This document shows positions 30,304 to 46,721 of a stretch of 64,000 nt of DNA, one piece after another; positions within the stretch are counted from its first letter, which is position 1, and each line of letters starts with the position of its first letter. The notes below the pieces were generated by a model. The model had not been told where the DNA came from. It ran no database searches and saw only the letters and a program-made list of their open reading frames with translations. The position numbers and the translations under genes were made by a program. This DNA comes from Syntrophales bacterium (lineage in GTDB: Bacteria; Desulfobacterota; Syntrophia; Syntrophales; PHBD01), in the NCBI GenBank assembly GCA_963668175.1, contig OY764159.1, forward strand, positions 3,424,001 through 3,488,000, written 5' to 3'.

Positions 30304-30324
30304 TGCTAATACCCTCCTCTCTGT

Positions 30325-30370: not shown

Positions 30371-30592
30371 GAGCTCTTTAACACGCAATGATGAAATATC
30401 AATTCCGAGGCAGGTTAATTGACATATAAGTTTGGCTAGGGCAGGCATTTATTCCCGAACGGGAACTATTTCGCCTGTTTTGCCCTTTACCATGGCTGAT
30501 ATTCCCGAACGGGAATAATATGTCATTTTCACTATTGTTGCCATTTTTACCAAATGGTGAAAATGCCTTTGGGAGTGAAAACTCGGCCGCGG

Positions 30593-31510
30593 TTACACTC
30601 CCAGATGGTCTCTCAACTTCTTCACCGCCTGCTGATGCTTTGCCTTGCTCATCCTGGCGATGTTCACGAGCTTCCATTTGACGGCCGGCATATTCTCGAT
30701 GCCTTCCATCTCCAGCAGCTCCCACTGAGGAGCCCCCTCTTTCACCGAGACGATGAACTTCTTCTCCGGGAGGGTCATTTCTCGGTTAATCAACGAAACA
30801 AGCTCCTCCCTGGCCCGCTCAAGGTTCTCTACAGAAACAGCCTCAGGGGTCATTCCGCTGAACTCCATTTCATAAACAGACTGGATATCCTTAAAGCTCG
30901 GATTCAGGAGTTCAACAATCGGCCGGTCATGGCTGATGAGATAGACGATGAAGGCTTTTCTCAGGGTCGGCGTAAACTCCCCGTCCCGCTGGAACACGAG
31001 GATGTCGAACAGATCTCTTGGATGCTGGCGATCGAGGGCTGCGCAGATCTTCCCTGCGTATAACTCATCCTCCGCGAGAGTCCTGCATTTTACCGATAAC
31101 GCAAAGGCCTCCCGTGCTTTTGCAGTCATCGCTCTGAATACAGGAGGATAAATAGTGCCCCGCAAAACCAGATTTGGTTCAATCTTCACGGACACTTCCT
31201 GGTATTGAACGAGCAACCCACTCACCAGACCCGTCCCCTTCGACCTTTTGGGCGTGATCCTGGTCCCGGGAATTCTGTCTTTAATTTTCTGGGTAATCCG
31301 GACGAGCGCTTCGCTGATTTCCTGATGGGACGGCTCCCGCTCCTTGATGGGAAGATACACAAGATCGATGTCTACGGAGATCCGTGGGAGATCCCTGATA
31401 AAGTAATTGATGGCCGTTCCACCCTTCAATGCGAAGACGGATTCTTCGTCAGCAAATGGCAGTATCCGTAGCACCAGCCTTGCTCGTTTAAAATCTATAC
31501 TTTCTTTCAT
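30593..31510 (-). CDS. abiEii: AbiEii nucleotidyltransferase toxin (type IV TA)
   Basis: ALKGGTAIN..PRISVDIDL..AGKICAALDRQHPRDLFD. Confidence 0.93.
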   Translation of the reverse strand: MKESIDFKRARLVLRILPFADEESVFALKGGTAINYFIRDLPRISVDIDLVYLPIKEREPSHQEISEALVRITQKIKDRIPGTRITPKRSKGTGLVSGLLVQYQEVSVKIEPNLVLRGTIYPPVFRAMTAKAREAFALSVKCRTLAEDELYAGKICAALDRQHPRDLFDILVFQRDGEFTPTLRKAFIVYLISHDRPIVELLNPSFKDIQSVYEMEFSGMTPEAVSVENLERAREELVSLINREMTLPEKKFIVSVKEGAPQWELLEMEGIENMPAVKWKLVNIARMSKAKHQQAVKKLRDHLGV

Positions 31511-32289
31511 CCCGGCATTACCTCACTTTCCGCGGGAACGGTTATCTTGTATTTTGCGTTATAGCGGCCCTTTTGTACGATTACATACTTTCCTCTTCCG
31601 AGATCGACTTTCTCCAAAGCAAGCTCTGACAACCAAGCATGTTCGCATCTATCAGCCATGTACAAAAACAGCCTCTTCACCTTGACCGAACGGCATAGTT
31701 CCAACAGGGTCTGCACGACGTCTGGCCTTAGGGAAACGAGGTTCTGCATGATCAGGTAGGCTTCTGAAAACCCGGCATGCTTTGGAACAAGGTGCAGCAT
31801 TTCCATCATGGCCCTCTCCGGCGCTGACATCCTGACCGAGAAGTCCTTCTCGTCATGTTCCACGAATCCCTGAGTCTCCGCCGGGAAAAGATTCGTGCGT
31901 GTTACAAGTATCTCAACACCGAGTTGTTCACTATTAAACCAGGAAGGTTTTTTCATAGCGTATGGACCATAGAGATACACGAGGACCTGTCTTACTCGAA
32001 GATAATGCGCATACCCCTGCAGTTCGAGGGCCGTCTTCCCGCCGGCGTGTATAGGCAACTTCAACTGGGTCTGCAAAGTATATAAGGCTCCCAGCCAATC
32101 GACTTTCTCTCCGTAGCGCTTATAAGCCCCACGACCGAAAGATTCCAGCCACTGGGCGAGCTTATATTTCACTAGGGTATCCGGCTTTAAACCTTGCGAA
32201 ACCAGATAGGATGCTGCACTAGGAGTTCCGGGAACCCACTCGGTTATAAGACGGTTTATTTTTGTTCGATCTTTAGGACTCATAGTCAT
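31507..32289 (-). CDS. abiEi: AbiEi antitoxin
   Basis: HAGGKTALELQG..SAPERAMME..CRSVKVKRLFLY; overlaps abiEii. Confidence 0.92.
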   Translation of the reverse strand: MTMSPKDRTKINRLITEWVPGTPSAASYLVSQGLKPDTLVKYKLAQWLESFGRGAYKRYGEKVDWLGALYTLQTQLKLPIHAGGKTALELQGYAHYLRVRQVLVYLYGPYAMKKPSWFNSEQLGVEILVTRTNLFPAETQGFVEHDEKDFSVRMSAPERAMMEMLHLVPKHAGFSEAYLIMQNLVSLRPDVVQTLLELCRSVKVKRLFLYMADRCEHAWLSELALEKVDLGRGKYVIVQKGRYNAKYKITVPAESEVMPG

Positions 32290-33057
32290 AATAATAGCAT
32301 AATCTTTAACTCATGTCAATTCAATAGTTATGTATTATTTTGTTTTTATGACTATTTGTCATATTGCTATCTTATTTCTTAACTTTTCCTTCCCCCACCT
32401 GCTCCAGCACTTCCATCTCTTACATCTCCCGCTCCATCTCCATCTCCGTCTCCATCTCCAGCAGCTCCACCATCTTCATCACCACACCAACAACGACGAT
32501 AATAATCATGGTGGCTGTCATCAATCACAAACAGAAGAGCTTCACGAGGAGGAGCAGAAGAACGAGGCGGTCTTCATAATAAAAAGTCAATTTTGAGGCT
32601 GGTTAATTGACATAACTGCTTCGCCAGGTCAATTTGTGCTCCTGAAATTAATCGTTTCATTAATTGAATCAAAAGGAAGATTTGCAGTATTCGCGAATAG
32701 CGAATGCAATAATTTCCATAAGTTTGAAATCCATGAAATTAGTGTAAGATATTATAAAATTTCAATGCAATGCAAAGTCGACTGATTATTCCATCTAACA
32801 AAGCCATGTGAAAAGCGTTATCCTTAATCACACACTACATCATTCATTCATTCAGTCACCCACTCAATCAACCTTTCAATCATCCTTAAAGACAACCTCT
32901 TGACCAGTCAACCGCATTCGCTTCTTTGAGAGGAATAATATTGGATGACCTACCCCACGAAAGCGGATCTAGCTGTTAAGTTAAGATTCGAGCATAATGA
33001 GCCAGAAACGGTTAACCGGGTTCTTTGCACGTTCCTTAATAGTTTGTGCTGTGTATT

Positions 33058-33687
33058 CTAAATCTGAGTAGTAATTCTTCGGCTTTCGAGGAATTTGACG
33101 AGAGTGCCCCTGTGGACGTCAAACATGCGGGCCATTGCGCTTTTTGAAATCTTCTTTGCCATCAGTTTTCGGATTTCATCCTCCCGGCCGTCCAGTCGGC
33201 TTTTTGATAAAGCACCTTTCGGCCTGCCCAATTTCTTACCTCCTTGTTTCACAGCAGCCAGGGCCGCCTTTGTCCTGGAACTAATCATATCCCGCTCCAA
33301 CTCGGCCAGTAGAGAGAACACCGTCACCATGACCTTTGAGGTCATGTCGTGGTTGCCCTGGACATCGAGGTTCTGTTTGATGGCCACGAGGCGGATCTTC
33401 CGTTCAACCAGGGCGTTGACCAGGCCGATCACCTCCGGAATGCTCCGGCCAATCCGGGACAGTTCCGAGACGATAAGCAGATCGCCCGGTGCGAGTTTGC
33501 CCATCAGCTCATCGATGCGCCGCTCCTTCGTCGTTTTGCGAGAGGAGATCTCGATCGAGATGAACTCGTCGACATTGATCCGGTGCCGGTTGGCGTAGTC
33601 CAGGATCTCCAGGCGCTGCTTGTTGACGTCCTGCTCATCCGTCGAAACGCGGATATAGGCAATGGTTCGGGGTTGGGAGGTCATCAT
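33058..33687 (-). CDS. Serine recombinase (resolvase/invertase)
   Basis: AYIRVSTDEQ catalytic Ser, ELSRIGRS, AELER, LGRP, C-terminal HTH. Confidence 0.93.
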   Translation of the reverse strand: MMTSQPRTIAYIRVSTDEQDVNKQRLEILDYANRHRINVDEFISIEISSRKTTKERRIDELMGKLAPGDLLIVSELSRIGRSIPEVIGLVNALVERKIRLVAIKQNLDVQGNHDMTSKVMVTVFSLLAELERDMISSRTKAALAAVKQGGKKLGRPKGALSKSRLDGREDEIRKLMAKKISKSAMARMFDVHRGTLVKFLESRRITTQI

Positions 33688-33869
33688 TTTTGATTCTTTC
33701 TCTTTTTGCGATGCCAAATCAATTTCGCAAACCGGGGATCTTGTTGAGCGGCCAGTGCGAAAACGTAGTTGAGTGTGTCGACCTCCTCCTGAGGGATAGT
33801 GGGATCGTGAAACCAATAGCCTCGAACTTTATCTAAATGTACGACCTTCTCGTCTTTCTTGTCGCTCAT
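33684..33869 (-). CDS. Small hypothetical protein coupled to the resolvase
   Basis: RBS GGAGG, MSDKKDEK...; its stop overlaps the resolvase ATG. Confidence 0.55.
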   Translation of the reverse strand: MSDKKDEKVVHLDKVRGYWFHDPTIPQEEVDTLNYVFALAAQQDPRFAKLIWHRKKRKNQK

Positions 33870-34067: not shown

Positions 34068-34316
34068 AACCCTGTTATCTCGTGAATCTATCATACCGTG
34101 CAATTTGCTCATCTGTCAACATAAATGCCTAAAAACTAATTATAGTGATGAATTTTTGATAACTTTATTACTTATATTCAGTGATATAATTTTTACTATG
34201 CTATACGTTCCTTTTATTGATACATGCCTTCATGAATATAATAGTTGACGGATATCGAAAAATATGTATGATTAGTGTCGCGTTACACGATACATTTTTG
34301 TCAAGGAGTTTGTAAC

Positions 34317-37300
34317 ATGACGATTCCGTCCGAACAATATGACCATCCAGGGACCTATGTCCGAAAGAATATCATTCCCTCAGGCATGTCTGTTAAAGAT
34401 GCCGCCATACGGCTCGGTGTCGGCCGGCCTGCGCTATCGAACTTTCTCAACGGGAAATCCTCCCTATCACCCGACATGGCGGTTAGGCTGGAAAAGGCGT
34501 TCGGTGCCGACCGGAAGAAGCTACTCGACATGCAGGCTGCCTATGAACAACAGGAGAGGCGCGGCAGTGAACAGGAGGTCGCCGTGCGCGCCTTCGTCCC
34601 CTGCTTTCTTACCATCAAAGCCAAGCATATCGAGGAGTGGGCCGGCAGCAATATTGAAGCGCGTACCCACCTTCCCGTCTTACTGCGGAGGCTGGTACAT
34701 TCTACCGGCCACGATCTTCGTCAGGTCGACTTCCCAGGTTATGACAACGCGCAACGGAAGGGGTCAGATGGTTTCGTCGAAGCGGGCGCCGCTACACCAT
34801 GGATTCCTAAGGGAAAATCCCGTTGGGAGTTTGGAGTGGACAAAAATCCAAGTGTTAAAGCTGATAAAGATTATATAGCGCGGCTCACATCTGTTAATGC
34901 CGATGAAAGAGCAAAAAGCGCATTCATCTTCGTAACACCTCGCAATTGGCCCGGTAAGACTATTTGGGAGAAAAAAAAGAACGCGACCAGGGACTGGAAG
35001 GTTGTCAGAGCACTTGACGCAAGCGATCTCGAGCAGTGGCTGGAACAGTCGGTGCCGGCACAGGTCTGGTTCGCTGAACAAATAGCTATGCCTATCAGTG
35101 GCTATGAGACGCTGGAGCAGGCATGGCGACGCTGGACCGATGTTAGCGATCCCAATATGACTCCGGAGATATTTGCGCCATCGATTGCCGCTTACCGGGG
35201 GATGTTTAAATCATGGCTTGAGAAAAAGAGCGAAAGATTCTTTGTTGTCGCTGCCGATTCAAGGGATGAGGCGCTAGCTTTTCTGGCGTGTTTGTTTAAT
35301 GATGACGAACTCCGTAAATTCAAAGACCTCACTGCGGTCTTTACATCTTCGGCAACTTTAAAGACGCTTATCGCATCATCTGTGCCTTTCATTCCGATTG
35401 TCCATTCTTTAGACGCTGAACGTGAATTGGTCGATGCCCATCGCCGGCTTCATTGTATAGTTTTTCGTCCTCGAAATGCAGTTGATACAGAGGCTGATAT
35501 AGCTCTCGACCTGCTCGGATACGAAGACTTTAAGAAGTCACTTACGGCAATGGGAATAAGGGAAGAAGAAGTCAGTATGCTTGCAAGGGAGTCGGCTCAT
35601 TCACCTACGATCCTGCGCCGCCGTCTTTCTATAAATCCGGCGATCAGAATTCCGGCTTGGGCTGGTGATGACGAAATGTCAAAGGCTCTTGTACCAATAG
35701 TACTGATCGGTGCTTGGCATACCGAGTCGAAAGCGGATCGCGAAATCGTTTCATCGCTGGGCGATCGAGAGTACGAAACTATCGAAGACGATATCGCGCG
35801 TCTGCTCCGTTACGACGATAGCCCGGTGTGGTCTACAGGAAGTTACCGTGGTGTTATCTCTAAAATCGATGCGATATTTGCGATTGCAAGGATGATCACG
35901 CGGCCAAACCTCGACCGATTCTTTATTGCCGCTGAATGCGTCCTTGCGGAGTCCGACCCGGCGCTTGAACTGCCGGGAAAGGACAGGTGGGCCGCGGCAT
36001 TGTATGGTAAGACACGAGACCACTCCGGTGCTTTGAGAAACAGTGTCTGCGAGACGCTTGTCATCCTTTCGGTTCACGGAAACATCTTATTCCAGGACCG
36101 TATTGGCATCGACGTCGAAAGCTGTGTGGCGGCTCTGATCCGCAAGCTCTTAACGCCGCTGACGCTCGAAAAATTACTCTCCCAAGATAGCGATCTGCCT
36201 CGTTACGCTGAAGCAGCCCCCGATGTATTTCTCCGGATCATCGAAGCAGATCTTCAGAACGACGATCCAATCGTTCTCGGCCTTCTTAGCCCTGTCGACA
36301 GAAACTCATTATGGGATTCGCCGTCACGGACGGGTCTTCTTTGGGCGCTAGAGTGTCTTGCATGGAAACCACAGAACCTCCTTCGCGTATCGCTGATCTT
36401 AGCTCAACTCTCGCGGCGGAAAATCGACGACAATTTGATGAATAAACCGGATGCAAGCCTTCAGGAAATCTTCAGTTCATGGCTGCCGCAGACCGCAGCT
36501 TCAGTAGAAGAAAGGATCAAGGCGTTGGAAACTCTCATCAGGCGTTATCCGGATGTCGGATGGGAGATTTGCACAGCACAGATCAAGCCAGGTCCCCAGA
36601 TGGGCCACTATAGCTACCGGCCCCGCTGGCGCGGTGACGCCACTGGTGCCGGGCACGGTGCCACGCGCAAAGATATATACACGTTTTGCAGAAAGGTTTT
36701 GGATTTACTGATCGATTGGAGTTCTCATGATGAAAATACCCTTGGCGATCTCGTCCAGTCTCTCCAAGGCATGCCCGAGAAAGACCAGTCTAGGGTCTGG
36801 GATCTTATCAGTAAATGGTCCCCGAAAGCTAGTGAAGAGGCGAAGGCTACGCTTAGAGAGCGGATCCGAAAATTCGCTTTTACGCGACGCGGCCGTCAAC
36901 GAAAGCTTGGGGAAGCAACCCGTGACCGTGCACATGAAGCGTATGATAGCCTTAAACCTAACGACCCAGTAATCCGACACGGTTGGCTTTTCGCGAATCA
37001 GTGGATACAGGAATCGCCCGACGAAATCGAAGAGGAGGGGTTCGACTTTCGGAAACGCGATGAGAGGATCAACAGGCTACGTCGCGAAGCGATCACAGAG
37101 ATATGGACCGAATACGGTTTTGAAGGTGTCCAGAAATTACTTGCCGGCAGCGGTGCCGCTGGTACTGTCGGCCAATACGCAGCATCATTATTTACTGATA
37201 TGAAATCACAGGTTGATTTCATTTACCGTTGTCTTTCCCTTGATGGGGCTATCCGAAGTAAGGCTGATTGGTGCCTCCAAGGATTCCTTTGGTCGATCGT

Positions 37301-38387
37301 GGACGACTCACGCATCGAATTGCTGCAAGCTGCGCTTAAAGGACTGTCTGCTGAGGATTGTAAGCGGCTATTTATATGTACGCCTTTCCAAGAATCCACC
37401 TGGCGCCTTCTGGGCGATTATGATGAAGAGATCCGCAACGGCTACTGGCAGGACGTGTCTCCTTTCTTAGGCAAATTCACGCCCGCCGAGCTTACTACAG
37501 TGATTGACCGTTTTCTGGAAGCGAGGCGACCGCGCGCAGCATTCTTTGCCGTCCATATGGATTTCAGGGATATTGAAACATCGCGCCTCAAGAGGCTGCT
37601 GCTCGACGTTGCGACTGTCAATGTTGAGCCAGCAGATCATTTCAAGTTAGACAGCTACCACATTTCCGAAGCATTGGACTCACTTCATGGACGTGTGGGT
37701 GTAACCCATGAAGAAATGGCTCAACTTGAGTTTCTGTATATCGATGCCCTACGCAGCAGCAAGCATGGAATCCCGAATCTCGAAAGACAGATCGCGCAAA
37801 CTCCGTCGTTATTTGTCCAGGCCTTGGCGTTCGCCTACAAACGGAGTGACAATAGAGAAGACCCACAGGAGTGGAGGATTGAGAATCCCGAACAAAGGAG
37901 GGCGATGGCTTCGGCTGCTTATCACCTCCTTGACCAGATGGAGAAGATTCCCGGTACGGATGAAAACGGAAGAATTAAAGGAACGGATCTCACTGCGTGG
38001 ATTGCTGAGGTTAGGCGTCTATGCCATGAGTTCGCCCGCGTTGAAATTGGTGATCAGTGTCTCGGGCAACTACTAGCTAAGGCCCCCATGGATGAAAATG
38101 GCATATGGCCGTGCGAGGCAGTTTGCGAGGCGATGGAGGGAATGGCATCCGCTGAAATCGGCAAGGGATTCCATATCGGTGTAAAGAATTCTCGCGGAGT
38201 TCACTCGCGGGGCGAGGGGGGAGAACAGGAGCGCGAGCTCGCCGCGAAATACCGGGCTTGGGCCGAGCGCCTGCACTTTAACTATCCCTTTGTTGGGGGA
38301 GTCCTTGAGGATATCGCCAAGTCCTATGACCGTGAAGCCATATGGCAGGATTCCGAAACCAAGATCGAGAAGAGGTTGAACTATTGA
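34317..38387 (+). CDS. HigA-type HTH fused to a large (~1250 aa) region (degenerate nuclease/NTPase-like and helical repeats)
   Basis: HPGTYV..LGVGRPALSNFLNGKSSLSPDMAVRLEKAFG; KGSDGFV..RWEFG; RBS AAGGAG before ATG 34317. Confidence 0.85.
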   Translation: MTIPSEQYDHPGTYVRKNIIPSGMSVKDAAIRLGVGRPALSNFLNGKSSLSPDMAVRLEKAFGADRKKLLDMQAAYEQQERRGSEQEVAVRAFVPCFLTIKAKHIEEWAGSNIEARTHLPVLLRRLVHSTGHDLRQVDFPGYDNAQRKGSDGFVEAGAATPWIPKGKSRWEFGVDKNPSVKADKDYIARLTSVNADERAKSAFIFVTPRNWPGKTIWEKKKNATRDWKVVRALDASDLEQWLEQSVPAQVWFAEQIAMPISGYETLEQAWRRWTDVSDPNMTPEIFAPSIAAYRGMFKSWLEKKSERFFVVAADSRDEALAFLACLFNDDELRKFKDLTAVFTSSATLKTLIASSVPFIPIVHSLDAERELVDAHRRLHCIVFRPRNAVDTEADIALDLLGYEDFKKSLTAMGIREEEVSMLARESAHSPTILRRRLSINPAIRIPAWAGDDEMSKALVPIVLIGAWHTESKADREIVSSLGDREYETIEDDIARLLRYDDSPVWSTGSYRGVISKIDAIFAIARMITRPNLDRFFIAAECVLAESDPALELPGKDRWAAALYGKTRDHSGALRNSVCETLVILSVHGNILFQDRIGIDVESCVAALIRKLLTPLTLEKLLSQDSDLPRYAEAAPDVFLRIIEADLQNDDPIVLGLLSPVDRNSLWDSPSRTGLLWALECLAWKPQNLLRVSLILAQLSRRKIDDNLMNKPDASLQEIFSSWLPQTAASVEERIKALETLIRRYPDVGWEICTAQIKPGPQMGHYSYRPRWRGDATGAGHGATRKDIYTFCRKVLDLLIDWSSHDENTLGDLVQSLQGMPEKDQSRVWDLISKWSPKASEEAKATLRERIRKFAFTRRGRQRKLGEATRDRAHEAYDSLKPNDPVIRHGWLFANQWIQESPDEIEEEGFDFRKRDERINRLRREAITEIWTEYGFEGVQKLLAGSGAAGTVGQYAASLFTDMKSQVDFIYRCLSLDGAIRSKADWCLQGFLWSIVDDSRIELLQAALKGLSAEDCKRLFICTPFQESTWRLLGDYDEEIRNGYWQDVSPFLGKFTPAELTTVIDRFLEARRPRAAFFAVHMDFRDIETSRLKRLLLDVATVNVEPADHFKLDSYHISEALDSLHGRVGVTHEEMAQLEFLYIDALRSSKHGIPNLERQIAQTPSLFVQALAFAYKRSDNREDPQEWRIENPEQRRAMASAAYHLLDQMEKIPGTDENGRIKGTDLTAWIAEVRRLCHEFARVEIGDQCLGQLLAKAPMDENGIWPCEAVCEAMEGMASAEIGKGFHIGVKNSRGVHSRGEGGEQERELAAKYRAWAERLHFNYPFVGGVLEDIAKSYDREAIWQDSETKIEKRLNY

Positions 38388-38420
38388 AAGGAACTAGGTG
38401 CATCTCAACAGCCAATAAAC

Positions 38421-39797
38421 CTATTTCCAGTTGAGCTCAGGCCAAACCTGCCGCAAAACCTTTTCACTTTCTTGATTTGAGCAAAACTCGCAGTCCTGAA
38501 GTCTTCCATGTTTTCGCCGCAGCAGTTTATGTGGCGGCCGCCACGGATCGAGAGCAAGATAATTTTCGTTCATATTTCTCTGATCAATATCAAACCGAAT
38601 TAGTTCAAGCGCCAGTAACGCGCCAGCTAAATTCGAGATGAACGCAAATGGAGCTAATGATTGCTTGCCAGCGGCCGTTATTAATTCTCCGACTCCACAT
38701 AAAGATTTAAACAAAGTGTCAAAAGAGGTTCCAAGAAGAGCATCTTCGATCAGATTAGGATGGATTGCTGCAAGCTTATGCGCGATTGTCTTATCAATAA
38801 ATCCTTTTTGTACATCATCTAAAGAAATTCCCAAAGCTTCCGCTAAATGGCGCTCACGCTGATTTTCCTGCGGAATATGGGCGTAAATACAGGATAAACA
38901 TGCATTTAAATTTGGCTGACGATGGGAATGTATAATAATCTCAGAAATGTCTGTTGTTGACGCATCCAGGACCTCTACTGGAAGTTCATTTTGTATTGAT
39001 CTACGAGCACGACGACTATCAACCGTCGTAATTACCCTTCTCACTCTCTGGTCAGGTCTCGTTTTCCTGAAGTCGATAAAATTTCCCACATAGGCTTTCA
39101 CTTCCAATTCTCGGAATTTGGCTCTTGATGCTAGAATTTCAGCTTTATAATTGTGGTCCACATCTTCTGGCGAGAAGAAAAAACATCTGTTCAGGTTTCC
39201 CGAGCTTACTCTTTTGGGATCAACGACGAAAAGTCGGCCTTTTAGGGGTAAATGCTGAGCCGCCCATATGAAGCCGTTTGCTACACCTCCCGCCCCAACA
39301 AGCACTGCGTCGTCGATGGTAATATATTTTGAGAGGTTTTCCATTGGAAGGCCAACATTTTCAAAAATAAATATGAAAGGGTCTGGACTATTCGCGAATC
39401 TATCACCTCCGATAGTACGGGCGAGAACATAACCTGCCGCGAAGCAGGATGAAATCTTGCGCGTCAGATCGGGTACTGTCGCAACTTCAATGGAGTTAAG
39501 AGACGTTGCCGTATGAACTCTCATCTCTTTTTCCGTGACGGTCATCATTAACTTCAAAGATGCGTCCGTCAAGGGTTTGCAGCCAATTGCAAGCTCAATG
39601 TCACATTCTTCTCCCTCCGATACTATTTGTATGGTCCGCCTTAATAATTCAGAAATATCCGTTTTAAATGCAGCCGCTGACTCTCCAGTGCCTGCGGATA
39701 CTGCAGCTCTGAAATCAAGTCGCCTAGCAGCTTCGTCCTCGGAAATACCGGCAAGGCTCATCAATGTCCTTATGTTCTCAGTTTGGGCATCCATCAC
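38421..39797 (-). CDS. E1-like ThiF adenylyltransferase (BubD/BilD-like)
   Basis: LVGAGGV, SNLNR-like SGNLNRC, TVDSRRAR, CLSC and CEFC Zn pairs, candidate catalytic SLCG. Confidence 0.88.
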   Translation of the reverse strand: MMDAQTENIRTLMSLAGISEDEAARRLDFRAAVSAGTGESAAAFKTDISELLRRTIQIVSEGEECDIELAIGCKPLTDASLKLMMTVTEKEMRVHTATSLNSIEVATVPDLTRKISSCFAAGYVLARTIGGDRFANSPDPFIFIFENVGLPMENLSKYITIDDAVLVGAGGVANGFIWAAQHLPLKGRLFVVDPKRVSSGNLNRCFFFSPEDVDHNYKAEILASRAKFRELEVKAYVGNFIDFRKTRPDQRVRRVITTVDSRRARRSIQNELPVEVLDASTTDISEIIIHSHRQPNLNACLSCIYAHIPQENQRERHLAEALGISLDDVQKGFIDKTIAHKLAAIHPNLIEDALLGTSFDTLFKSLCGVGELITAAGKQSLAPFAFISNLAGALLALELIRFDIDQRNMNENYLALDPWRPPHKLLRRKHGRLQDCEFCSNQESEKVLRQVWPELNWK

Positions 39798-40255
39798 GGT
39801 TCAATTCTTACTACTGATAGAAAATTAACGGCCATCCACTTATCTTCCGCAGATAACTGAAACGTTGCGACTTTTTTTTCAAAATTTTTTTCGTCTATAC
39901 GGCTAGCAAAATAAGGTACAACAATTGAAATGGCCCCAGCATGCCGCAATATTGCCCATCTGTCGTCGGCAATAGAGTGGAAGGCTTTTCTGGGATGAGA
40001 ATGAACCTGCGCAACAATTCTCGTTCGCGTTTTCCGAAGATACCCCATGAGCTCACGCATTGAAGCCGGAGGAATCCTAAAATAATCAATGTCAACTTCC
40101 TGTTGAGGTTTATAAACTTCCAATACACGAAATACTTTGTTCTCCTCAATTCCCAGCCATAGCACAACTGTTTCGCAATAGACTTTCCCGCCTTCTCGCA
40201 GAATGCTTAATGTCTCGCTTACGACCTTCCGGTGACAAATCACGTCGTTTCTCAC
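39794..40255 (-). CDS. JAB/Mov34 metallopeptidase (BubC/BilC-like)
   Basis: CETVVLWLG, QVHSHPRKAFHSIADD (HxHx7Sx2D); GTG start overlaps the E2 stop. Confidence 0.9.
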   Translation of the reverse strand: MRNDVICHRKVVSETLSILREGGKVYCETVVLWLGIEENKVFRVLEVYKPQQEVDIDYFRIPPASMRELMGYLRKTRTRIVAQVHSHPRKAFHSIADDRWAILRHAGAISIVVPYFASRIDEKNFEKKVATFQLSAEDKWMAVNFLSVVRIEP

Positions 40256-40680
40256 GAATCTACAGATCTCCTCCATGCGCGACTGAGCTGATCCAATAAA
40301 CCGGGCAGATTCATGCCATCCTGTTTCCGATATGTTTCCCAAGGATCATTCAAATGGCCGGGATGGTTATGATACTCACGGATTCCCCGCATACAAATGA
40401 ATGGCCTTTGCACTAGGGGATGTAAATCCGGGTGAAATATATTACCAGGCAAACTTTGAGCGGGCTTGGCACCATCGGGTTCGAGTAATTCCGCCGAAGG
40501 AGGCTGCTCATCCCAATCATCACATGTAAATCGAACACGCAACGGTCGACTTCCCAGAAACGTAACGTCAATAATTGGGAACTCACATGTGTGAAGTTCC
40601 CAGTTGCGATTGGCTATTAACCTCGGGGAAATAAGAACGGCGTCGCGATCAAAGTTCGCCCTTGCTAATACTTCATGCAC
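40252..40680 (-). CDS. Prokaryotic E2-like protein (BubB/BilB-like)
   Basis: DDWDEQPPS, HP...RPFICMRGIREYHNHPGH; GTG start overlaps the Ubl stop. Confidence 0.8.
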   Translation of the reverse strand: MHEVLARANFDRDAVLISPRLIANRNWELHTCEFPIIDVTFLGSRPLRVRFTCDDWDEQPPSAELLEPDGAKPAQSLPGNIFHPDLHPLVQRPFICMRGIREYHNHPGHLNDPWETYRKQDGMNLPGLLDQLSRAWRRSVDS

Positions 40681-40966
40681 CGCCGCCACCTTCTTTTTTA
40701 TGCCACTCGATTTCAATTATTCCATGAAGATGATTGGCGTGAAAAGTCTTATGCGGGTCAATCGGCCGGTTTTCAACAAATGCTTCCCAGTCTGTTGTAT
40801 TGGTGAGGTGTAAATGCGCGGCTGCCGCCTCTAAAATCTTACCGACAACCTCCTCACTATACGATCGCTTATAATCGTCATCGTCTGGATATGTCCCACT
40901 AGGTGTAATTACGGCAACAGCAATTGGATGATTTTCTCCATGTTTATCATGATGATCGTGTTCCAT
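40673..40966 (-). CDS. Ubiquitin-like protein (BubA/BilA-like)
   Basis: 97 aa, beta-grasp-like pattern, C-terminus KKEGGGGA; RBS AAGGAGG. Confidence 0.8.
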   Translation of the reverse strand: MEHDHHDKHGENHPIAVAVITPSGTYPDDDDYKRSYSEEVVGKILEAAAAHLHLTNTTDWEAFVENRPIDPHKTFHANHLHGIIEIEWHKKEGGGGA

Positions 40967-41096
40967 TCGGGACCTCCTTAATCCTTCATGGTTGTTATGG
41001 TCACCTGCGGCTTGCTATTCTGTTAAGCCACAGCTTCAATCTGTTTCTACTTGCCTTTGCCGGTGAGGGTTGGAAATTCGGACATCGAGGAAATTT

Positions 41097-42020
41097 CTAT
41101 GGAACAAATAAATGGCGTCGTACTAGCCCACGGTATATGCCTAAAGTAAGAGCATCAAAACCATTGAAAAAACTTTCCATATGAAAAAGGTGTCGCTCAC
41201 CGTCACGCCCGGTAAAAATAACATCATCTTCTCCAAGGGGGCCACCACGTGCCCTTGACGCGTATCGCTGTATAGCAGTAAATACTTGGTTCTCCGTGAC
41301 ATCGCCAAAGCGATCACGAAAAGCAGGAGACTCAATGAAGTGACGACACGGTCTCGATGGATCGAAGTCAACTGCCAGATTTCTTGGGTGACCAGAAATG
41401 ACCCCAAATATGGGTTGATCCTTATGTGCTTCTTCAACAAGTCGCCAAAGAGTCATTGTGATAGTATTTCCGAACGTTTTGGCGAGGGTACGTGCTGTTT
41501 TTAAAGTTAAGGGAAGGTCTTGAGCCTCTTGGACAAAACGATCTCTCAAAAACAAGAGTTGTCCTGATCCAAAATTCGCCTCGGCTTCTAACTTCTCATG
41601 ACACGAGTGTCGTAATGTCTCTCCATCATCGCCATAGAAATAAGGACCGTGATGTGGGGTGATGCTGTGAATGATTTCATGGCTTTCCGCGTGGCGCTTT
41701 TTGAGATCGTGGATGCTATCGTCGATTAGAATGCGTTTGCGATCAGGAAGCCAAAGCGCTCTTAGTCCTGCCTTTTGGATTACATCGATAATGAGTGTCG
41801 GCCGCAACGCGAGTTGCTTAGCCCCCACTTTGATCCTACTAACGTACTCTCGAAGAGGGGCAGTTTGTACTGTGCTGTAAAATTGCCGGTCGAGCTCCAG
41901 CAGCTCTCGAACATCGCGAAGATCAAGTGGAGGCTCTGGATTCCCAAGTCCCCGGAGAACCTTGTCCACTTGATCCTTGATATCTTGAGCCGCATAGGGA
42001 TCGACCGGCAGATTCTTCAT
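41097..42020 (-). CDS. ImmA/IrrE (CapP-like) zinc metallopeptidase
   Basis: SHEIIH (HExxH), LEAEAN, HTH-like and GAF-like C-terminal parts. Confidence 0.85.
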   Translation of the reverse strand: MKNLPVDPYAAQDIKDQVDKVLRGLGNPEPPLDLRDVRELLELDRQFYSTVQTAPLREYVSRIKVGAKQLALRPTLIIDVIQKAGLRALWLPDRKRILIDDSIHDLKKRHAESHEIIHSITPHHGPYFYGDDGETLRHSCHEKLEAEANFGSGQLLFLRDRFVQEAQDLPLTLKTARTLAKTFGNTITMTLWRLVEEAHKDQPIFGVISGHPRNLAVDFDPSRPCRHFIESPAFRDRFGDVTENQVFTAIQRYASRARGGPLGEDDVIFTGRDGERHLFHMESFFNGFDALTLGIYRGLVRRHLFVP

Positions 42021-42559
42021 TGATCTGTATGCTCCCTCAGAAATCTCACAAACTGATTGAGAAGATTCTGCTCTTCCCGAGAGAGCTTGGAAATGTTTTG
42101 CGAACTCGCAGCAAAGCGTACGACTTCTTCTCGCACTTCTTCACTCACTTGCACAGCACCAGAAAGAACCACTAAAATCCTTGATGGCAACTTGAAATAC
42201 TGTTCTAACTGAAAAATCGTGCGCGGATTTGGGTCAAATGTTGGATCAAGCTCAATCTGTCGAAGTTCACCAACGTCAATTCGCGCTTCGGAGGCAAGTT
42301 GCTCAGGGGAGAGTCGCTCTCTACGTCGGAGCATCTGAATCAGCGTTCCAAGTCCCCGGTGCATGTCAGGTAGGTCATCGGTCTTTTCAACACTATCGAG
42401 TGCTCTCTTGACAACATCTCGACTTTCGTCTGCAAGAGAATCAAAGTCCTTGCTCGCGCCCTCAAGAGCCTCCCGGAGTTCCTGTTCAGATGCCTCGTGG
42501 ATAACATCTCTCAGTGCGCGATTTATCCTTACCTTTCTAATCCCTCCTGTTGATCTCAT
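42017..42559 (-). CDS. Xre-family HTH regulator with N-terminal helical extension
   Basis: LGTLIQMLRRRERLSPEQLASEARIDVGELRQIE. Confidence 0.85.
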   Translation of the reverse strand: MRSTGGIRKVRINRALRDVIHEASEQELREALEGASKDFDSLADESRDVVKRALDSVEKTDDLPDMHRGLGTLIQMLRRRERLSPEQLASEARIDVGELRQIELDPTFDPNPRTIFQLEQYFKLPSRILVVLSGAVQVSEEVREEVVRFAASSQNISKLSREEQNLLNQFVRFLREHTDQ

Positions 42560-42576
42560 TAAATAACCTCCCTTTC

Positions 42577-43116
42577 TTATAAATGTCGCACGTAATGGCG
42601 TCTAATTCTTTTCATGATAGTCTCATACTGTACTTTTCCTATGCCGAGTTCTTGTTGGATCTCGGACGCCGAAAAGCCCTCGCTTTTTAAAACTAGGAGG
42701 TCGCGAGCCATTTGATCTTCTTTAAATAAGTCTAGTATATTGTTTAGTTCTTCGTATGCTGATTGTCTTTCCAGAGGGTCAAACAATGGGCCTGCTATGT
42801 CAACTTCACGATCTTCAATCGATTCTGTACTGTGAGAAATGCTTGATTCAATTATATGTCCGGAATCGCTTTCCATTACCCTGTCCAAGTGTTTGATGAT
42901 AGATACGCTTTTGTTCCATCTCCTCCGACCGTCAAGTGTCTTCGTTATCGCTTCGTGTAGTAAATCATTGGGTTCGATAACCGAACCTTTCACGCGAGTG
43001 CGGCAAAAACTGCGTGCGATAAGGTTTAATTTAACATAATCCATCGGTCCGAGGGTCTCCATGGCCACTCGGGCTTCTTCACGTGTAGCGTACTGTTTAG
43101 CAATGTCAATTATCAT
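42577..43116 (-). CDS. ECF-type sigma-70 family factor
   Basis: Region 2 DLLHEAITKTLDGRRRW; region 4 EGFSASEIQQELGI...KRIRR; RBS AGGAGGTG. Confidence 0.75.
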   Translation of the reverse strand: MIIDIAKQYATREEARVAMETLGPMDYVKLNLIARSFCRTRVKGSVIEPNDLLHEAITKTLDGRRRWNKSVSIIKHLDRVMESDSGHIIESSISHSTESIEDREVDIAGPLFDPLERQSAYEELNNILDLFKEDQMARDLLVLKSEGFSASEIQQELGIGKVQYETIMKRIRRHYVRHL

Positions 43117-43326
43117 TTTCGCACACCTCCTACTACCTATTGCCCACAGCAAGGCGCATCACGGACATCGCAAGAGAATTTCTTTGATTTTTTAAACTCT
43201 CTATAAAGGTCAGTCCGCAGTTTATACAAAAATGTTTAAATTTACGAATTTGCTGATATTTAGAAGAAAGGATTTTAACATAATCTAGTACTCAATAGGG
43301 AATAATTCCAGCCTGCGATGAATTTT

Positions 43327-43520
43327 GTTACCATATCGGTTACCATTTTTTCTGAAAACTAAGGATATTTCAAAAGATTGACAGGGAGGGGACTTTTGGT
43401 AACAACAATTTATAACGTAATATATTTAGATCGTTATCAATCCAAAGCGCATTAAAGAAACCTATGAATAATGATGAGTATGGGACTCAAAATCCCCCCT
43501 TCCTTGGGTAAATGTCGGTT
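43327..43520 (+). mobile_element. att-site scar: arm-type repeats plus degenerate 3' half of tRNA-Leu(CAA)
   Basis: GTTACCAT at 43327 and 43339, inverted at 43397; anticodon arm GGGACTCAAAATCCC 43482-43496 followed by a decayed variable arm and TGTCGGTT. Confidence 0.55.
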
Positions 43521-43729
43521 TCAGCTTATGAGAAAAACCAGGAATCCCGCTTCTTCCTAGCCTATAAATAGTACCTTACGCCACATTCTCATACTTATGA
43601 ATCATTATACTATACATCGAACATCTTGTCAAGGTAAGCAAACAATTACAGATAGTTAGTTGACTTCAGTAGACCTATAATGTAATGCCTTTTTTCATTG
43701 TTCTCAATTTATCAAAAGGAGAGGGTATA

Positions 43730-44377
43730 ATGACAAAAGGTTACAGAGTAGTGAACTGGAGAAATGATCAGCGGCAAATTGTAGCATCAGAACTGATTCC
43801 TCAAGGGACGATCATCATGAAAGAAGATCCACTAGTTTGGGTGAAGACCATAAATCAAAGATACGATAATCATCCGTGGGATCTAACTGATTTATTGCTC
43901 AGCGATCGTTCAAAGTTTAATATTCTGATGAGCTGGAAATTACTGAATACTACGTTCGTACCGTGGGATAATTATGATGAAAGAATTTGTAAAAGGCTTG
44001 CAAATAATTTCCGTCTCGATAATCAAACTATCAGACATTTATATGAATTAATCTGCATTAATAATCTAAGTTGCTTTAGCAAAAAATACGAAGATATTAT
44101 AGGTTATGGCATTTTTCATAACCTAAGTTTCATAAATCATGACTGTACTCCCAATTCTTCAATATCAGCTGGTAACCCGACAAGGGGGGAAATGATGCTC
44201 ACGAGTGTGAAAGAAATAGAACAGGGTGAAAGCATCACGTTCACTTATCTATCCGATTTTGAGACAAAATTAAATATAAATTACAGAAGGAAAAGCATCG
44301 AATCACAATTCGGATTCATTTGCGAATGTAACCGTTGTTCGGCCGAGACCTCTTCTGATCGCGCACATCATTTTTAA
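43730..44377 (+). CDS. SET domain lysine methyltransferase (SMYD-like, with post-SET Cys motif)
   Basis: SFINHDCTPN, EIEQGESITFTY, FGFICECNRC. Confidence 0.88.
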   Translation: MTKGYRVVNWRNDQRQIVASELIPQGTIIMKEDPLVWVKTINQRYDNHPWDLTDLLLSDRSKFNILMSWKLLNTTFVPWDNYDERICKRLANNFRLDNQTIRHLYELICINNLSCFSKKYEDIIGYGIFHNLSFINHDCTPNSSISAGNPTRGEMMLTSVKEIEQGESITFTYLSDFETKLNINYRRKSIESQFGFICECNRCSAETSSDRAHHF

Positions 44378-44514
44378 TCAGTAGGTTGCCGGCTCAATTT
44401 CAACAGGGCTCACTAGATCAAGGGGCTGCGAATGTGACGCCTTCGGGCTTTTTGACAGAATCGTTGTGTTTTCTCATAATCATCTCGTTATCAATCAAAA
44501 TGATAATGAACATT

Positions 44515-44928
44515 ATCATCTAAGGAGATGACGAACATCATCGAAAGGGATGACAAAGTCTAAGAAAAAGCCTTCTGTCATCAAAAGGAATGACGAGCGG
44601 CAATTGAAAATTTATCTTCGCCGTCAGTGAATCCTACGTACAGCCGGATGATACTCTTTAACGTCCTTATCTTCGAGTTTGCGCAAGAAAATATCCGTTT
44701 CTGGTATGAAGAATAAGGTTAAAAAATGCGCTGCATATAAACCAGTTTAATCATCGAGGCGAAAAGAATTGGGGGGTTCGGTGCCGCATCATCTGATCGT
44801 TTCATATTCACACTCCTGCCACGCTACAGGGCAACTAAAAACCTCATGCCTCCGCTATGCTATGGTCTTCCGGACTTTTCTTTCAACCGTTATCAGAAGT
44901 GATAACGCTTGTCATCAATTGGGATGAC
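44515..44928. repeat. Second cluster of RTCATC-N6-(G/A)ATGAC palindromes
   Basis: 44515-44532, 44537-44554, 44577-44594, 44911-44928. Confidence 0.85.
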
Positions 44929-45556
44929 ATTCCCGATGCATCGCTACCAAAACACCGTCCACAATTGGCCTTTATTGACCGGTCTCAGGTCGCGGCAAAG
45001 CGCGCCACGACTCGATCGCTTCGTATAAGGGCCACCCTACGACGATACCCGGCAGGCTGAAGCCCTGTCCCTCTGTACACTAACCCGATAGCCAAGACAC
45101 TACCTGGGGCGGCGGGATCTTTGCTGTTTCAGATGATTACAGATGAACAACAAAGACCTGGAATAAGGGGGCTGCACAGCAGCTCCTTTAGAGCCGCGCC
45201 CCCTGCCCCTTGAGGGGCAGAGTTGGCGCGGCGAGCAGTCGCCTCCGTCCTGCTAAAAGCATTAGCGGCTTACGCCGCTGTAGCCGGCACAAGGCCGGCC
45301 ATGATCTATTGTTAAGGGTGAAGGGATATTATTCATCGGAAGCCGTTAATCAGTCTGTGTGAAATAAAATATACACCCGTGGCCGGAGGCGCAGCCGAAG
45401 GCGAGGGGAACCCCCGGAGATCGGGGGTAGGGGGCTGTGAGGTTTTAATCTTTTATCTCTATATTTTTTAGTTAAAGGCAGGCGCGTCACCTGTAAATAT
45501 GTGTAAACAATGCATGGACGTCCAACTGGCTGATATCGTGAGTTTGTAGCTTTACT

Positions 45557-45632
45557 GCATGTCCTTTTTCGGACTTCGCTATGTCCATTTTCGGAGCTCA
45601 TTATGTCCGTTTTCGGAGGTCACTGTGTCCAT
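45557..45632 (+). repeat. Iterons of a plasmid origin (22-bp period)
   Basis: ATGTCC.TTTTCGGA at 45559, 45581 and 45603, partial GTGTCC at 45625; adjacent AT-rich tracts; directly upstream of rep. Confidence 0.85.
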
Positions 45633-45645
45633 GATAAATTAATAA

Positions 45646-45703
45646 TGGCATATAAATGCCAATGCAGAAAAACTATTGACATAGTAAAAAAAAGTGATAG
45701 AAT
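45646..45703 (+). promoter_or_regulatory. rep promoter with upstream palindrome
   Basis: TGGCAT-ATAA-ATGCCA 45646-45661; TTGACA 45676 - 16 bp - TAGAAT 45698. Confidence 0.55.
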
Positions 45704-45725
45704 CAAGAAATAAAAGGTGATTATT

Positions 45726-46721
45726 ATGGTTGACTCTGAAATCATTAAAAAAGCAGGCCTGCCACAGGCGATAAATAAACACTCAGCTGCGATCCATATA
45801 TCTGGCAACGAGCTAACATTGCTGCAGAGAAAGGCCTTCAATATATTGCTGGCTAATGCCTATAATGAGTTGGAAACTAAGGAGAAGCATACTATTAGAA
45901 TTTGGGACATACTTAGTTGCACAGGATGGCACGATGCAGAAACGCTCAAGAAGGCTCTTGTTGCTCTCAGCACTACAGCCGTCCAATGGAACATCTTGCG
46001 TAAGGATGACGACCGGGAAAAGGGCACGAGTGAGTGGGGAGTGGCAACTTTGCTCGCCGAAGCAGTTATTACGGACGACACCGTTTTAACTTATGCATAC
46101 TCGCCGACCATGCGTAAAAAATTATTCAATCCAACCATATACGCACGAATCAATTTGGCGATGCAGAAAAAATTTGCCTCCAAATATTCTCTGGCTTTAT
46201 ACGAACTGGCGGTGGATTACTTCATTCGGGCTCGCGGGAAAGGCAGAACCGGATGGATCGTCCTGGATGATTTTAAAAGGATTCTTGGCTGCGAATACGA
46301 AAAGAAGTATAGAAGTTATGGCGAACTAAACAGGCATATCATTCAAAAAGCGATAAATGAGATAAATGACAAATCGGATCTTCAGGTCACATACGAAACG
46401 AAGCTGGCCCGTGGGAAAGGCCGGAAAGTCATTGCTGTGAAATTTGGAATTAGTCGGAATGAATACAAAACAGCTTATTTTGACAAGATGTACGGGCCGA
46501 AACACAAGGAACCAGATCTCGAAACCCAGCTGGCCAAGCGCCTCCGAGACGAATTCTTGCTTAGCGAGAACCAGGTGGTTTATGCGCTAGAGATGCATTC
46601 TGCCCGCATCATGGACATACTTGATGAGGTCAAAAAAAATAATGATGCCGGTTTGGTCGAAAACATCGGCAGTTACACGTGGGATAAGATCAAGAATAAT
46701 TACATTCCGCCCGCTCGATAA
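45726..46721 (+). CDS. Rep_3 (RepB-type) plasmid replication initiator
   Basis: LTLLQRKAFNILL, SKYSLALYE, FKRILG..Y..LNRHIIQKAINEINDKSDL..KGRKVIAVKF. Confidence 0.9.
   Translation: MVDSEIIKKAGLPQAINKHSAAIHISGNELTLLQRKAFNILLANAYNELETKEKHTIRIWDILSCTGWHDAETLKKALVALSTTAVQWNILRKDDDREKGTSEWGVATLLAEAVITDDTVLTYAYSPTMRKKLFNPTIYARINLAMQKKFASKYSLALYELAVDYFIRARGKGRTGWIVLDDFKRILGCEYEKKYRSYGELNRHIIQKAINEINDKSDLQVTYETKLARGKGRKVIAVKFGISRNEYKTAYFDKMYGPKHKEPDLETQLAKRLRDEFLLSENQVVYALEMHSARIMDILDEVKKNNDAGLVENIGSYTWDKIKNNYIPPAR

Follow-up and report, generated by a model that had tools for sequence, protein, structure and literature searches.

We analyzed a window of 64,000 nucleotides (nt) from a Syntrophales bacterium, corresponding to positions 3,424,001-3,488,000 of a single-contig 4.57-Mb chromosome, and the whole analysis was computational. 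The subject of this report is a locus of seven open reading frames (ORFs) that fill positions 38421-43116 of the window. A first reading of the DNA letters, called here the original prediction, had described seven co-oriented genes in which a sigma factor, a helix-turn-helix (HTH) protein and an IrrE-like protease are encoded ahead of a ubiquitination operon. The ORF map bore out this arrangement, with all seven genes on the minus strand.

Gene map and the BilABCD operon

The first gene of the locus encodes a sigma-like protein of 179 amino acids (aa) (42577-43116, minus strand, as are all seven genes), and its ATG at 43116 lies 9 nt behind an AGGAGG sequence. After a gap of 17 nt comes the gene for the HTH protein (180 aa, 42017-42559), whose stop codon is overlapped by the start of the gene for an M78-family peptidase (307 aa, 41097-42020). 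The four distal genes encode a ubiquitin-like protein (Ubl; bilA, 97 aa, 40673-40966) ending in GGGGA, a conjugating (E2) protein (bilB, 40252-40680), a JAB protein (bilC, 39794-40276), and an activating (E1) protein (bilD, 458 aa, 38421-39797). The E2 is 142 aa long when read from GTG 40680, and its frame is open back to TTG 40716. The JAB protein is 160 aa long from ATG 40276, and GTG 40255, which has GGAGGAG upstream of it, is an alternative start.

The original prediction stated that four of the junctions overlap at start and stop codons. This held for HTH/peptidase and JAB/E1, where the overlaps are exactly 4 nt (ATGA and GTGA, respectively). The E2/JAB overlap is 4 nt (GTGA) from GTG 40255 and 25 nt from ATG 40276, and therefore depends on the start that is used. 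For Ubl/E2 the statement was only partly correct: the genes overlap by 8 nt if the E2 starts at GTG 40680, and an in-frame 4-nt overlap is absent at this junction. Chance ORFs can be dismissed, since all of the proteins except the Ubl have a family or PDB match and the Ubl has 86 homologues. The stretch is also present in contigs of two DNA runs. A search of Rfam gave no match at E ≤ 0.1 in 38000-45800.

Sequence and order identify the four distal genes as a ubiquitination-like operon of Type II BilABCD (CEHH/6C). The gene order Ubl-E2(CEHH)-JAB-E1, as given by the ORF map and the domain matches in order, matches that of Type II BilABCD. PADLOC found BilC at 8.1e-12 and, faintly, BilB. In Pfam, the JAB protein matched Prok-JAB, the E1 matched E1-N (1.6e-9) and ThiF (2.7e-10), both above the cut-off, and the E2 matched Metal_CEHH (3e-9), also above the cut-off. 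The closest PDB sequences of the three enzymes were all Ensifer aridi proteins: the E2 BilB (8tyz_C, 7.9e-9) for the E2, the deubiquitinase (DUB) BilC (8tyx_B, 1.5e-15) for the JAB protein, and the E1 BilD (8tyz_A, 1.9e-13) for the E1.

The residues expected of these enzymes were then located. Alignment of the E2 to 8tyz_C showed that the CEHH residues (C, E+6, H+8, and H+13) are all kept, and the catalytic Cys is C96 (numbered from GTG 40680), inside FICMRGIREYHNHPGH. The JAB/JAMM active-site residues E...HxH...S...D are present in the JAB protein as E35, H92, H94, S101, and D104. The E1 consists of E1-N (an inactive adenylation domain), a ThiF adenylation domain, and CxxC at residues 300 and 436, and its C367 aligns with the catalytic C417 of E. 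aridi BilD in the sequence alignment. In the E1 of Type II BilABCD, an inserted helical segment bears the catalytic Cys. The features that had been picked out in the original prediction, namely the GGGGA tail of the Ubl, the Cys of the E2 in FICMRGIREYHNHPGH, and the CxxC pairs and Cys 367 of the E1, are all found as described.

The Ubl itself gave no Pfam match and no meaningful PDB sequence match. An AlphaFold2 (AF2) model made from the homologue alignment had a predicted local distance difference test (pLDDT) score of 85 and a beta-grasp fold. A Foldseek search with this model gave 123 PDB matches at E ≤ 1e-3, with SUMO, ISG15, and GABARAP at the head of the list and E. aridi BilA (8tyx_A) at rank 22 (E 3.3e-4). 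The 97-aa protein, for which the original prediction had assumed a beta-grasp fold, is thus predicted to have it by AF2 and Foldseek. At its tail, G93-G96 are invariant and A97 is nearly invariant (47 of the 86 homologues aligned).

Two operon labels, BilABCD and BubABCD, had been offered together. The first stood, as the best PDB matches are to E. aridi BilD, BilB, and BilC. A Bub operon was excluded, since Pfam found no DUF6527 (BubE), Prok-E2_E, DUF6791, or fused E1 among the seven proteins. According to the published biochemistry of Type II Bil, BilC would remove the terminal Ala97 of BilA and expose Gly96. BilD would adenylate BilA and carry it on C367, and BilA would then pass to the CEHH-type E2, BilB, and finally onto target lysines. 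The system encoded here is presumably anti-phage.

The sigma-like protein and a predicted anti-sigma module

Of 107 candidates, 76 proved to be homologues of the sigma-like protein at E ≤ 0.001. None of these homologues carries a precomputed Pfam domain, and five were named as sigma-24 family by one source. TIGR02937 (sigma70-ECF, for extracytoplasmic function) matched the protein with an E of 4.3e-5, residues 46-186 falling on positions 14-160 of the 165 in the model. Among the loci fetched for comparison, which are denoted by L numbers, L021 encodes a relative that is 30% identical and passes Pfam Sigma70_r2. When the sigma profile was compared with PDB sequences, SigH was the only match (E 0.2-0.56).

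The AF2 model of the protein (pLDDT 76) has two helical domains. Helices at residues 12-94 are sigma2-like, residues 92-113 form a disordered linker, and helices at residues 114-178 are sigma4-like. Almost all of the top Foldseek rows were ECF sigma chains or sigma/anti-sigma complexes, and the matches include SigH, sigma-E, SigL, AlgU-MucA, and SigW-RsiW. The two-domain model and these best rows support the ECF-like sigma named in the original prediction. From its predicted fold, we read the protein as a divergent group-IV (ECF) sigma factor with sequence evidence below curated thresholds.

In the second protein, Pfam placed an Xre-type HTH (HTH_19/HTH_3) at residues 70-126, and PADLOC gave an HTH_VI match. 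About 65 residues precede the HTH, which differs from the plain CapH layout with its N-terminal HTH. By its domain layout, the protein is a CapH variant, not a plain CapH member. It has 498 relatives at E ≤ 1e-3 among 1.84 billion representatives, and approximately 40 of the 498 align from about residue 10 on and so share the extension. In an alignment of 43 full-length HTH proteins (A3), the extension is moderately conserved and is joined to the HTH by a variable linker, and a C-terminal segment follows the HTH. Within this last segment, RFAA is almost invariant (residues 148-151, with F149, A150, and A151 invariant or nearly so).

The third protein matched PADLOC capP at 1.5e-7 and, weakly, Pfam Peptidase_M78 (0.014). 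Its HExxH is HEIIH at residues 114-118, and its orthologues, which are 68-75% identical, matched Peptidase_M78 at 1.2e-7 to 3e-4 where they scored at all. No PDB sequence match was found for it. The capP match, the HExxH, and the overlap of the genes agree with the proposal that the HTH protein and the IrrE-like protease are a pair of the CapH/CapP kind.

The original prediction had suggested that the extra N-terminal part of the HTH protein is a possible anti-sigma and that its complex with sigma should be modeled. Uncut, full-length sigma and HTH protein were given to a complex predictor with alignments, in three runs with three controls. The complex scored 0.82, 0.81, and 0.82, compared to 0.16 for the best control; the mark set for this tool is reached by 116 of 157 solved complexes and by 2 of 215 mismatched pairs. 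The runs had at least 73% of their contacts in common, with a partner pLDDT of at least 80. The confident interface involves only residues 9-57 of the HTH protein, which we designate the predicted sigma-binding (anti-sigma) module (42389-42535, minus strand), and both domains of sigma (residues 16-82 and 127-177). Class-I anti-sigma domains sit between sigma2 and sigma4. The modeled extension lies between sigma2 and sigma4 in the same geometry.

The neighboring genes in other loci were consistent with this model. In L017, a sigma gene whose product is 44% identical is followed by an 86-aa ORF that is homologous to the extension alone (hhalign 95.3%, E 2.2e-8, 54 columns), and no HTH or M78 gene was found there within about 4 kb. 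Ten loci have a sigma that is at least 36% identical and continue for about 600 nt or more beyond its gene, and in each of them the extension module is encoded by the next gene. Nine of these are HTH fusions (L001, L002, L004-L009, and L012) and one is free-standing (L017). Seven more loci in the ≥36% range end too soon to judge (L010, L011, L013-L016, and L018). Sigma, HTH protein, and peptidase are conserved together in nine loci. More distant trios, in L023, L025, L026, L028, and L033, consist of sigma, a 134-147-aa protein without an HTH, and M78. Their middle proteins showed weak homology to the extension (hhalign 26.5% for L025 and 7.3% for L023), which we treat as no more than suggestive. 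Overall, the sigma fold, the complex model, the free-standing homologue in L017, and the promoter motif described below support the N-terminal extension of the HTH protein as a predicted anti-sigma for the adjoining, dedicated sigma.

A predicted sigma-linked promoter motif and the distribution of the trio

A shared motif was found by comparing the spacers between peptidase and Ubl genes and the regions upstream of sigma genes across loci. It reads (G)ATGTCCG-N16-(C/G)GGCA, then nnAG, with an A/T-rich patch before it (23 aligned sites). One copy in the window, TGTCCG-N16-GGGCA (43141-43167, minus strand), is the predicted autoregulatory promoter of sigma. It is preceded by GA and an A/T-rich stretch, and its -10-like element ends 25 nt before the sigma ATG. 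The other copy, TGTCCG-N16-CGGCA (41058-41084, minus strand), is the predicted bil promoter, which starts 13 nt past the peptidase stop and ends 92 nt before the bilA ATG. The region 40967-41096, which had been proposed for a reporter assay in the original prediction, contains this predicted promoter. No sigma-70-type promoter was found in the 130-nt spacer between the peptidase gene and bilA. The predicted leader of bilA has an inverted repeat, CTGTGGCTT-N11-AAGCCGCAG (40990-41025, minus strand), that was seen by eye and could form a 9-bp stem.

A short exact pattern was rejected as evidence because it is unspecific (four window matches with ≤1 mismatch compared to 2.1 expected), and it was replaced by a matrix. 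The matrix has 50 columns, was built from 20 distinct sites that all lie outside the window, and was run over both strands of the entire 4.57-Mb genome. The two window sites ranked first (41058-41084, 31.8 bits) and second (43141-43167, 26.5 bits), the third-ranked position scored 18.5 bits, and only 13 positions in the genome scored above 15 bits.

The motif occurs twice per locus, before sigma and before the downstream operon, in the window and in L001, L002, L004, L005, L006, and L007. Its orientation is always towards the downstream gene, and its spacer is fixed at 16 nt. In the window, L001, L004, L005, and L006, the motif lies 23-25 nt ahead of the start codon of sigma. A single copy was found upstream of sigma in ten shorter or different contigs (L008-L011, L014, L015, L017, and L020-L022). 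In two of these, L017 and L021, the motif is kept upstream of sigma homologues with HTH and M78 genes absent within about 4 kb.

In the distant trios (L023, L025, L026, L028, and L033), a forward TGTCCG-N16-AGCAT was recognized by eye before sigma. About 25 nt upstream of it is its exact reverse complement, ATGCT-N16-CGGACA, recognized in the same way. L012 likewise has two opposed copies, with a slightly different -10, also recognized by eye. The paired, opposed motifs of the distant trios suggest sigma-dependent promoters that diverge, which would mean that the other strand carries a regulated operon as well.

We predict that the motif is the sigma-dependent promoter of both the sigma operon and the bil operon. 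A promoter was favored over an operator because the motif accompanies sigma homologues that lack HTH and M78 genes, has a constant orientation, asymmetric flanks, and a near-fixed distance to the gene, and forms divergent pairs. A search around the two motif sites and in the 570 nt upstream of the sigma gene gave no convincing inverted repeat in common. Because the two half-sites are weakly dyad-like, we keep a small probability for the motif acting as an operator.

A possible promoter of a second type lies about 490 nt upstream of the sigma gene, where a perfect sigma-70 consensus, TTGACA-17-TATAAT (12/12), is present at 43604-43632 on the minus strand and faces the sigma gene. Between this sequence and the sigma gene there are only very short minus-strand ORFs (≤30 aa). 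It may drive basal expression of the trio, whose transcript would then have a long leader, or it may serve a small RNA.

Outside the window, the trio precedes Bub-type operons in L001, L002, L005, and L007, with sigma proteins 50-64%, HTH proteins 57-72%, and peptidases 68-75% identical to those of the window. The operons of L001, from an Acidobacteria metagenome-assembled genome (MAG), and L002, from a Latescibacterota MAG, are Type I-like Bub (Multi_ubiq Ubl, Prok-E2_E, JAB-ThiF, and DUF6527), and those of L005 and L007 are Type II Bub (Multi_ubiq, DUF6791-ThiF, and DUF6527). The trio of L004 stands before a ubiquitin-like protein and unknown genes, and that of L012 before unknown genes. Homologues of the window's Bil proteins were absent from the 41 fetched loci except for the window's own, and among the retrieved loci the trio fronts a Bil operon in the window only. 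The sigma was present in 1 of 401 sampled genomes of the window's phylum, the one being the window's genome. In L002 (6977-9363), the sigma gene is split by a DDE transposase (7257-8789) into fragments for residues 6-57 (6977-7132) and residues 59-179 (9001-9363), and the motif (6857-6883) still precedes the N-terminal fragment. Judged by this comparison of loci, the trio is a mobile cassette.

The surroundings of the seven genes look like a defense island on an integrated element. On one side, domain matches placed a SocA/Panacea protein within a defense and mobility cluster (17705-33816). The cluster contains an MmeI-like type IIL restriction-modification gene (20149-22887), a RES-Xre toxin-antitoxin pair (29285-30303), AbiEi/AbiEii (30593-32289), and a resolvase (33058-33816). 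Converging on the E1 gene is a gene for a 1370-aa protein (34275-38387, plus strand). The protein has a HigA-like HTH at its N-terminus (TIGR02607, 4.2e-15), Pfam found no further domain in it, and PADLOC gave a faint match to PD-Lambda-4_A (0.0023). It may be an uncharacterized defense protein. On the other side, a gene for a SET-domain protein of 230 aa (43685-44377, plus strand; Pfam SET, 2.4e-11) is divergent from the sigma gene and lies in a low-GC patch (about 37%). A bacterial SET methyltransferase inside a defense island is unusual.

The stretch between the SET-domain and Rep3 genes is gene-poor and contains four copies of a 19-nt palindromic repeat, TGTCATC..A.GG.ATGAC (44514-44928). 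Three tandem 22-bp iteron-like direct repeats, ATGTCC.TTTTCGGA..., are found at 45559-45624, just upstream of a gene for a Rep3-family initiator (Rep3_N and Rep3_C, 45717-46721). The initiator and iterons suggest an integrated or remnant iteron plasmid. The iterons start with ATGTCC (one with ATGTCCG), like the -35-like half of the sigma motif, and this is probably a coincidence. A present plasmid location was rejected, as the 4.7-kb stretch was unmatched in PLSDB by megablast and the window is chromosomal. Also rejected was a repeat upstream of sigma: a second contig of one run is 81% like 43322-43497, and blastn found no such copy in the genome.

The proposed switch and known systems

We consider it probable that the Type II BilABCD operon is under a three-gene controller in which release of sigma is the ON switch. 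Basal transcription from the promoter at 43604-43632, or leaky sigma activity, may make sigma, inhibitor, and peptidase. In unstressed cells, sigma would be held inactive by the approximately 60 N-terminal residues of the HTH protein, as in the complex model. DNA damage or phage infection would activate the CapP-like peptidase, by analogy through single-stranded DNA (ssDNA). In the inhibitor, the peptidase would recognize the CapH-like part, made up of the HTH and the C-terminal domain, and cut the protein, and the cut would either free sigma or destabilize the inhibitor. Sigma would then recognize ATGTCCG-N16-SGGCA and transcribe bilABCD and its own operon, giving positive feedback. Release of sigma would turn the system on, either in place of relief of repression or in addition to it.

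CapP and IrrE are activated by ssDNA (Lau et al. 2022, 10.1101/2022.04.27.489752; 10.64898/2026.05.16.725639), and CapP has been modeled docking on the HTH and the C-terminal helix of CapH (10.64898/2026.05.16.725639). By analogy, this docking gives a reason for the fusion to retain the HTH and C-terminal domain, as they may be docking parts for the peptidase. A wider reading, for which we put the chances slightly above even, is that fusion of an anti-sigma module to CapH, and the addition of an ECF-like sigma of its own, turned a CapH/CapP-type regulator into a protease-gated transcriptional ON switch that has positive feedback. The 180-aa protein would be an intermediate that keeps the full CapH body, related trios would keep the sigma-binding part only, and the cassette would move between Bil and Bub with its own promoter pair.

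Several observations weigh against sigma release. The weakest link is the need for a C-terminal cut to free a sigma that is bound N-terminally. The E. coli CapP cut site is in the C-terminal dimerization domain of CapH, far from where the sigma-binding extension would be (10.1101/2022.04.27.489752). A cut might free sigma through loss of oligomer avidity, exposure of a degron, or cleavage in the 58-70 linker. The perfect sigma-70 promoter at 43604-43632 could drive the trio independently of sigma. The sigma-like protein falls below the cut-offs of its best models (23.2 bits compared to 42.9 for TIGR02937 and 15.2 compared to 21.1 for Pfam Sigma70_ECF), and its best Foldseek E is 2.8e-3, with no row at ≤1e-3. 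The sequence match of the peptidase to M78/CapP is weak, with none in the PDB. The complex score is the model's own confidence, to which the sigma/anti-sigma sandwiches that are common among solved structures may contribute. With regard to the motif, its short exact pattern is common in the GC-rich genome (34 matches compared to 9 for the reversed control), and its half-motifs are weakly dyad-like (TGTCCG and TGCCG, the complement of CGGCA).

The dyad-like half-sites, together with a retained and conserved HTH domain, would also fit classical CapH/CapP derepression alone. Under that explanation the motif would be the operator of the HTH protein, the housekeeping sigma would transcribe the operon, and the sigma-like gene would be an accessory or a passenger. 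CapH/CapP of E. coli MS115-1 works in this way (10.1101/2022.04.27.489752), and CapH/CapP lies beside 25 of 162 Type II Bil operons (10.1101/2023.09.26.559546). We nevertheless find derepression alone unlikely. The motif stays with the sigma homologues of L017 and L021 that have no HTH or M78 neighbor, is oriented to the gene with asymmetric flanks (A/T-rich before, nnAG after), and is paired divergently in the distant trios. Also, the 130-nt spacer before bilA has no sigma-70-like promoter, and sigma, HTH protein, and peptidase are conserved together in nine loci.

Another possible explanation is a dual role, in which the HTH protein is both an anti-sigma and a DNA-binding repressor of sigma-70 or sigma-dependent promoters, and cleavage lifts both blocks. 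The conservation of both modules in one chain (A3) and the 12/12 sigma-70 consensus 490 nt upstream of the sigma gene are in its favor. The distant trios, which dropped the HTH and kept a similarly placed N-terminal region, make the HTH an optional addition, which also agrees with a dual role. However, a search around the two motif promoters and the upstream promoter gave no palindrome or candidate operator in common, and the CapH HTH has been modeled as a docking surface for CapP (10.64898/2026.05.16.725639), so the HTH may be a mere protease handle. A dual role is improbable in our estimate. An inactive or decaying controller, on an island that is a horizontally acquired remnant with bil genes silent or expressed by read-through, is a very remote prospect. 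In its favor, the phylum otherwise lacks the cassette among the sampled genomes (1 of 401), the island holds a resolvase, Rep3 gene, and iterons, and the orthologous sigma gene of L002 is split by a transposase. Against it, none of the seven frames is broken, the genes have ribosome-binding sites and coupled starts, both motifs are the genome's best-scoring sites, and no catalytic residue is missing.

What keeps immune operons silent, and what then turns them on, is an open question in phage defense. To our knowledge, the three described families of immune-operon regulators (CapW/BrxR, CapH+CapP, and CapK+CapS) all work by removal of a repressor. The sigma-release version, if true, would instead use the logic of an activator, with built-in amplification and insulation from host promoters. 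Such insulation could explain how the cassette functions across distant phyla, as represented by the window, L001 (Acidobacteria), and L002 (Latescibacterota). The parts of the locus are a promoter motif at two mapped sites, a sigma-binding module of about 50 residues, and a candidate protease substrate. They could also provide a compact orthogonal sigma/anti-sigma/protease set for synthetic biology.

The searched literature contained no study of a sigma/anti-sigma-HTH/M78 switch. A one-sentence remark that no analysis accompanies was found in Lau et al. 2022 (10.1101/2022.04.27.489752), where 24 CBASS (cyclic oligonucleotide-based antiphage signaling system) systems have capH and capP 'alongside a predicted sigma70-family sigma factor'. 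The searched text of that paper has no further mention of a sigma factor, and its other matches to 'sigma' are reagent suppliers. In the available text of the preprint on the CapP mechanism (10.64898/2026.05.16.725639), 'sigma' is absent. In the examined passages of the CapK/CapS paper, the term 'sigma factor' serves only to call CapK and CapS anti-sigma-like, and no sigma gene beside capH/capP is mentioned. Supplementary Table 1 of Chambers et al. (10.1101/2023.09.26.559546) has CapP and CapH columns only and none for sigma.

Chambers et al. (10.1101/2023.09.26.559546) renamed CEHH/6C operons Type II BilABCD, with the order Ubl-CEHH/E2-DUB-E1. They reported that BilC removes the residue after a conserved Gly (Gly97-Ala98 in E. 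aridi) and that CapH/CapP adjoin 25 of 162 Type II Bil operons, and their listed examples are mostly from plant-associated Rhizobiaceae. The window's operon resembles the Bil of E. aridi TW10 (PDB 8TYX and 8TYZ) in gene order, CEHH residues, and an E1 with E1-N, ThiF, and an aligned catalytic Cys. Its Ubl is likewise a single predicted beta-grasp of near-equal length with one Ala after the reactive Gly (Gly96-Ala97). The setting in a defense island, with a CapP-type peptidase and HTH protein upstream, is also that of Type II Bil. In contrast, the sequences are distant, the E1 match is confined to the adenylation domain, and the solved Ubl is not matched in sequence by that of the window. The E1 (458 aa compared to 535) and E2 (about 142 aa compared to 204) are shorter, and the Ubl belongs to a subfamily with an invariant GGGG before the tail. 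Compared to known Bil regulators, the window adds a third gene (sigma) and an extended CapH.

Bub systems are also ubiquitin-like conjugation operons, and the window's type of trio fronts them in L001, L002, L005, and L007. According to Ye et al. (10.1101/2024.11.21.623953), CapH and CapP precede 168 of 544 Bub (6E/DUF6527) operons. The window differs from Bub in its Cys-type CEHH E2 and separate JAB, and it is without DUF6527, a Prok-E2_E or DUF6791 E2, or a peptidase-E1 or E2-E1 fusion.

Sigma factors have been linked to anti-phage loci in Myxococcus xanthus, where the ECF sigma DdvS and its membrane anti-sigma DdvA control a CBASS-CRISPR island (PMC11506125). The window's pair is like DdvS/DdvA and other ECF/class-I anti-sigma pairs in that a small two-domain sigma is encoded with its inhibitor, whose helices are predicted to lie between sigma2 and sigma4. 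Further likenesses are an autoregulated promoter (predicted here), control of an anti-phage locus, and release that is thought to be proteolytic. Unlike in those pairs, the window's inhibitor is cytoplasmic, has no zinc motif, and is fused to an Xre HTH, and a cytoplasmic M78 peptidase takes the place of membrane site-1/site-2 proteases. The window's sigma also differs from ECF sigmas in scoring below the curated ECF hidden Markov model cut-offs.

The closest likeness of the controller's HTH protein and peptidase is to CapH+CapP and the related IrrE/DdrO and ImmA/ImmR pairs, in which the gene for an Xre HTH protein that has a C-terminal domain overlaps the gene for an M78 HExxH peptidase behind it. 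As with CapH+CapP, the pair lies directly upstream of an immune operon and is co-oriented with it. The HTH of E. coli CapH begins at residue 2 (Lau et al. 2022, 10.1101/2022.04.27.489752), whereas that of the window's protein is internal, behind a predicted sigma-binding extension of 65 aa, and a sigma gene precedes the pair. The window's motif also behaves like a sigma promoter, not a palindromic operator. CapH/CapP beside Bil and Bub operons is already known, and the less ordinary element here is the sigma gene. By its sequence matches, the window's Bil operon extends a known family by one new and distant member.

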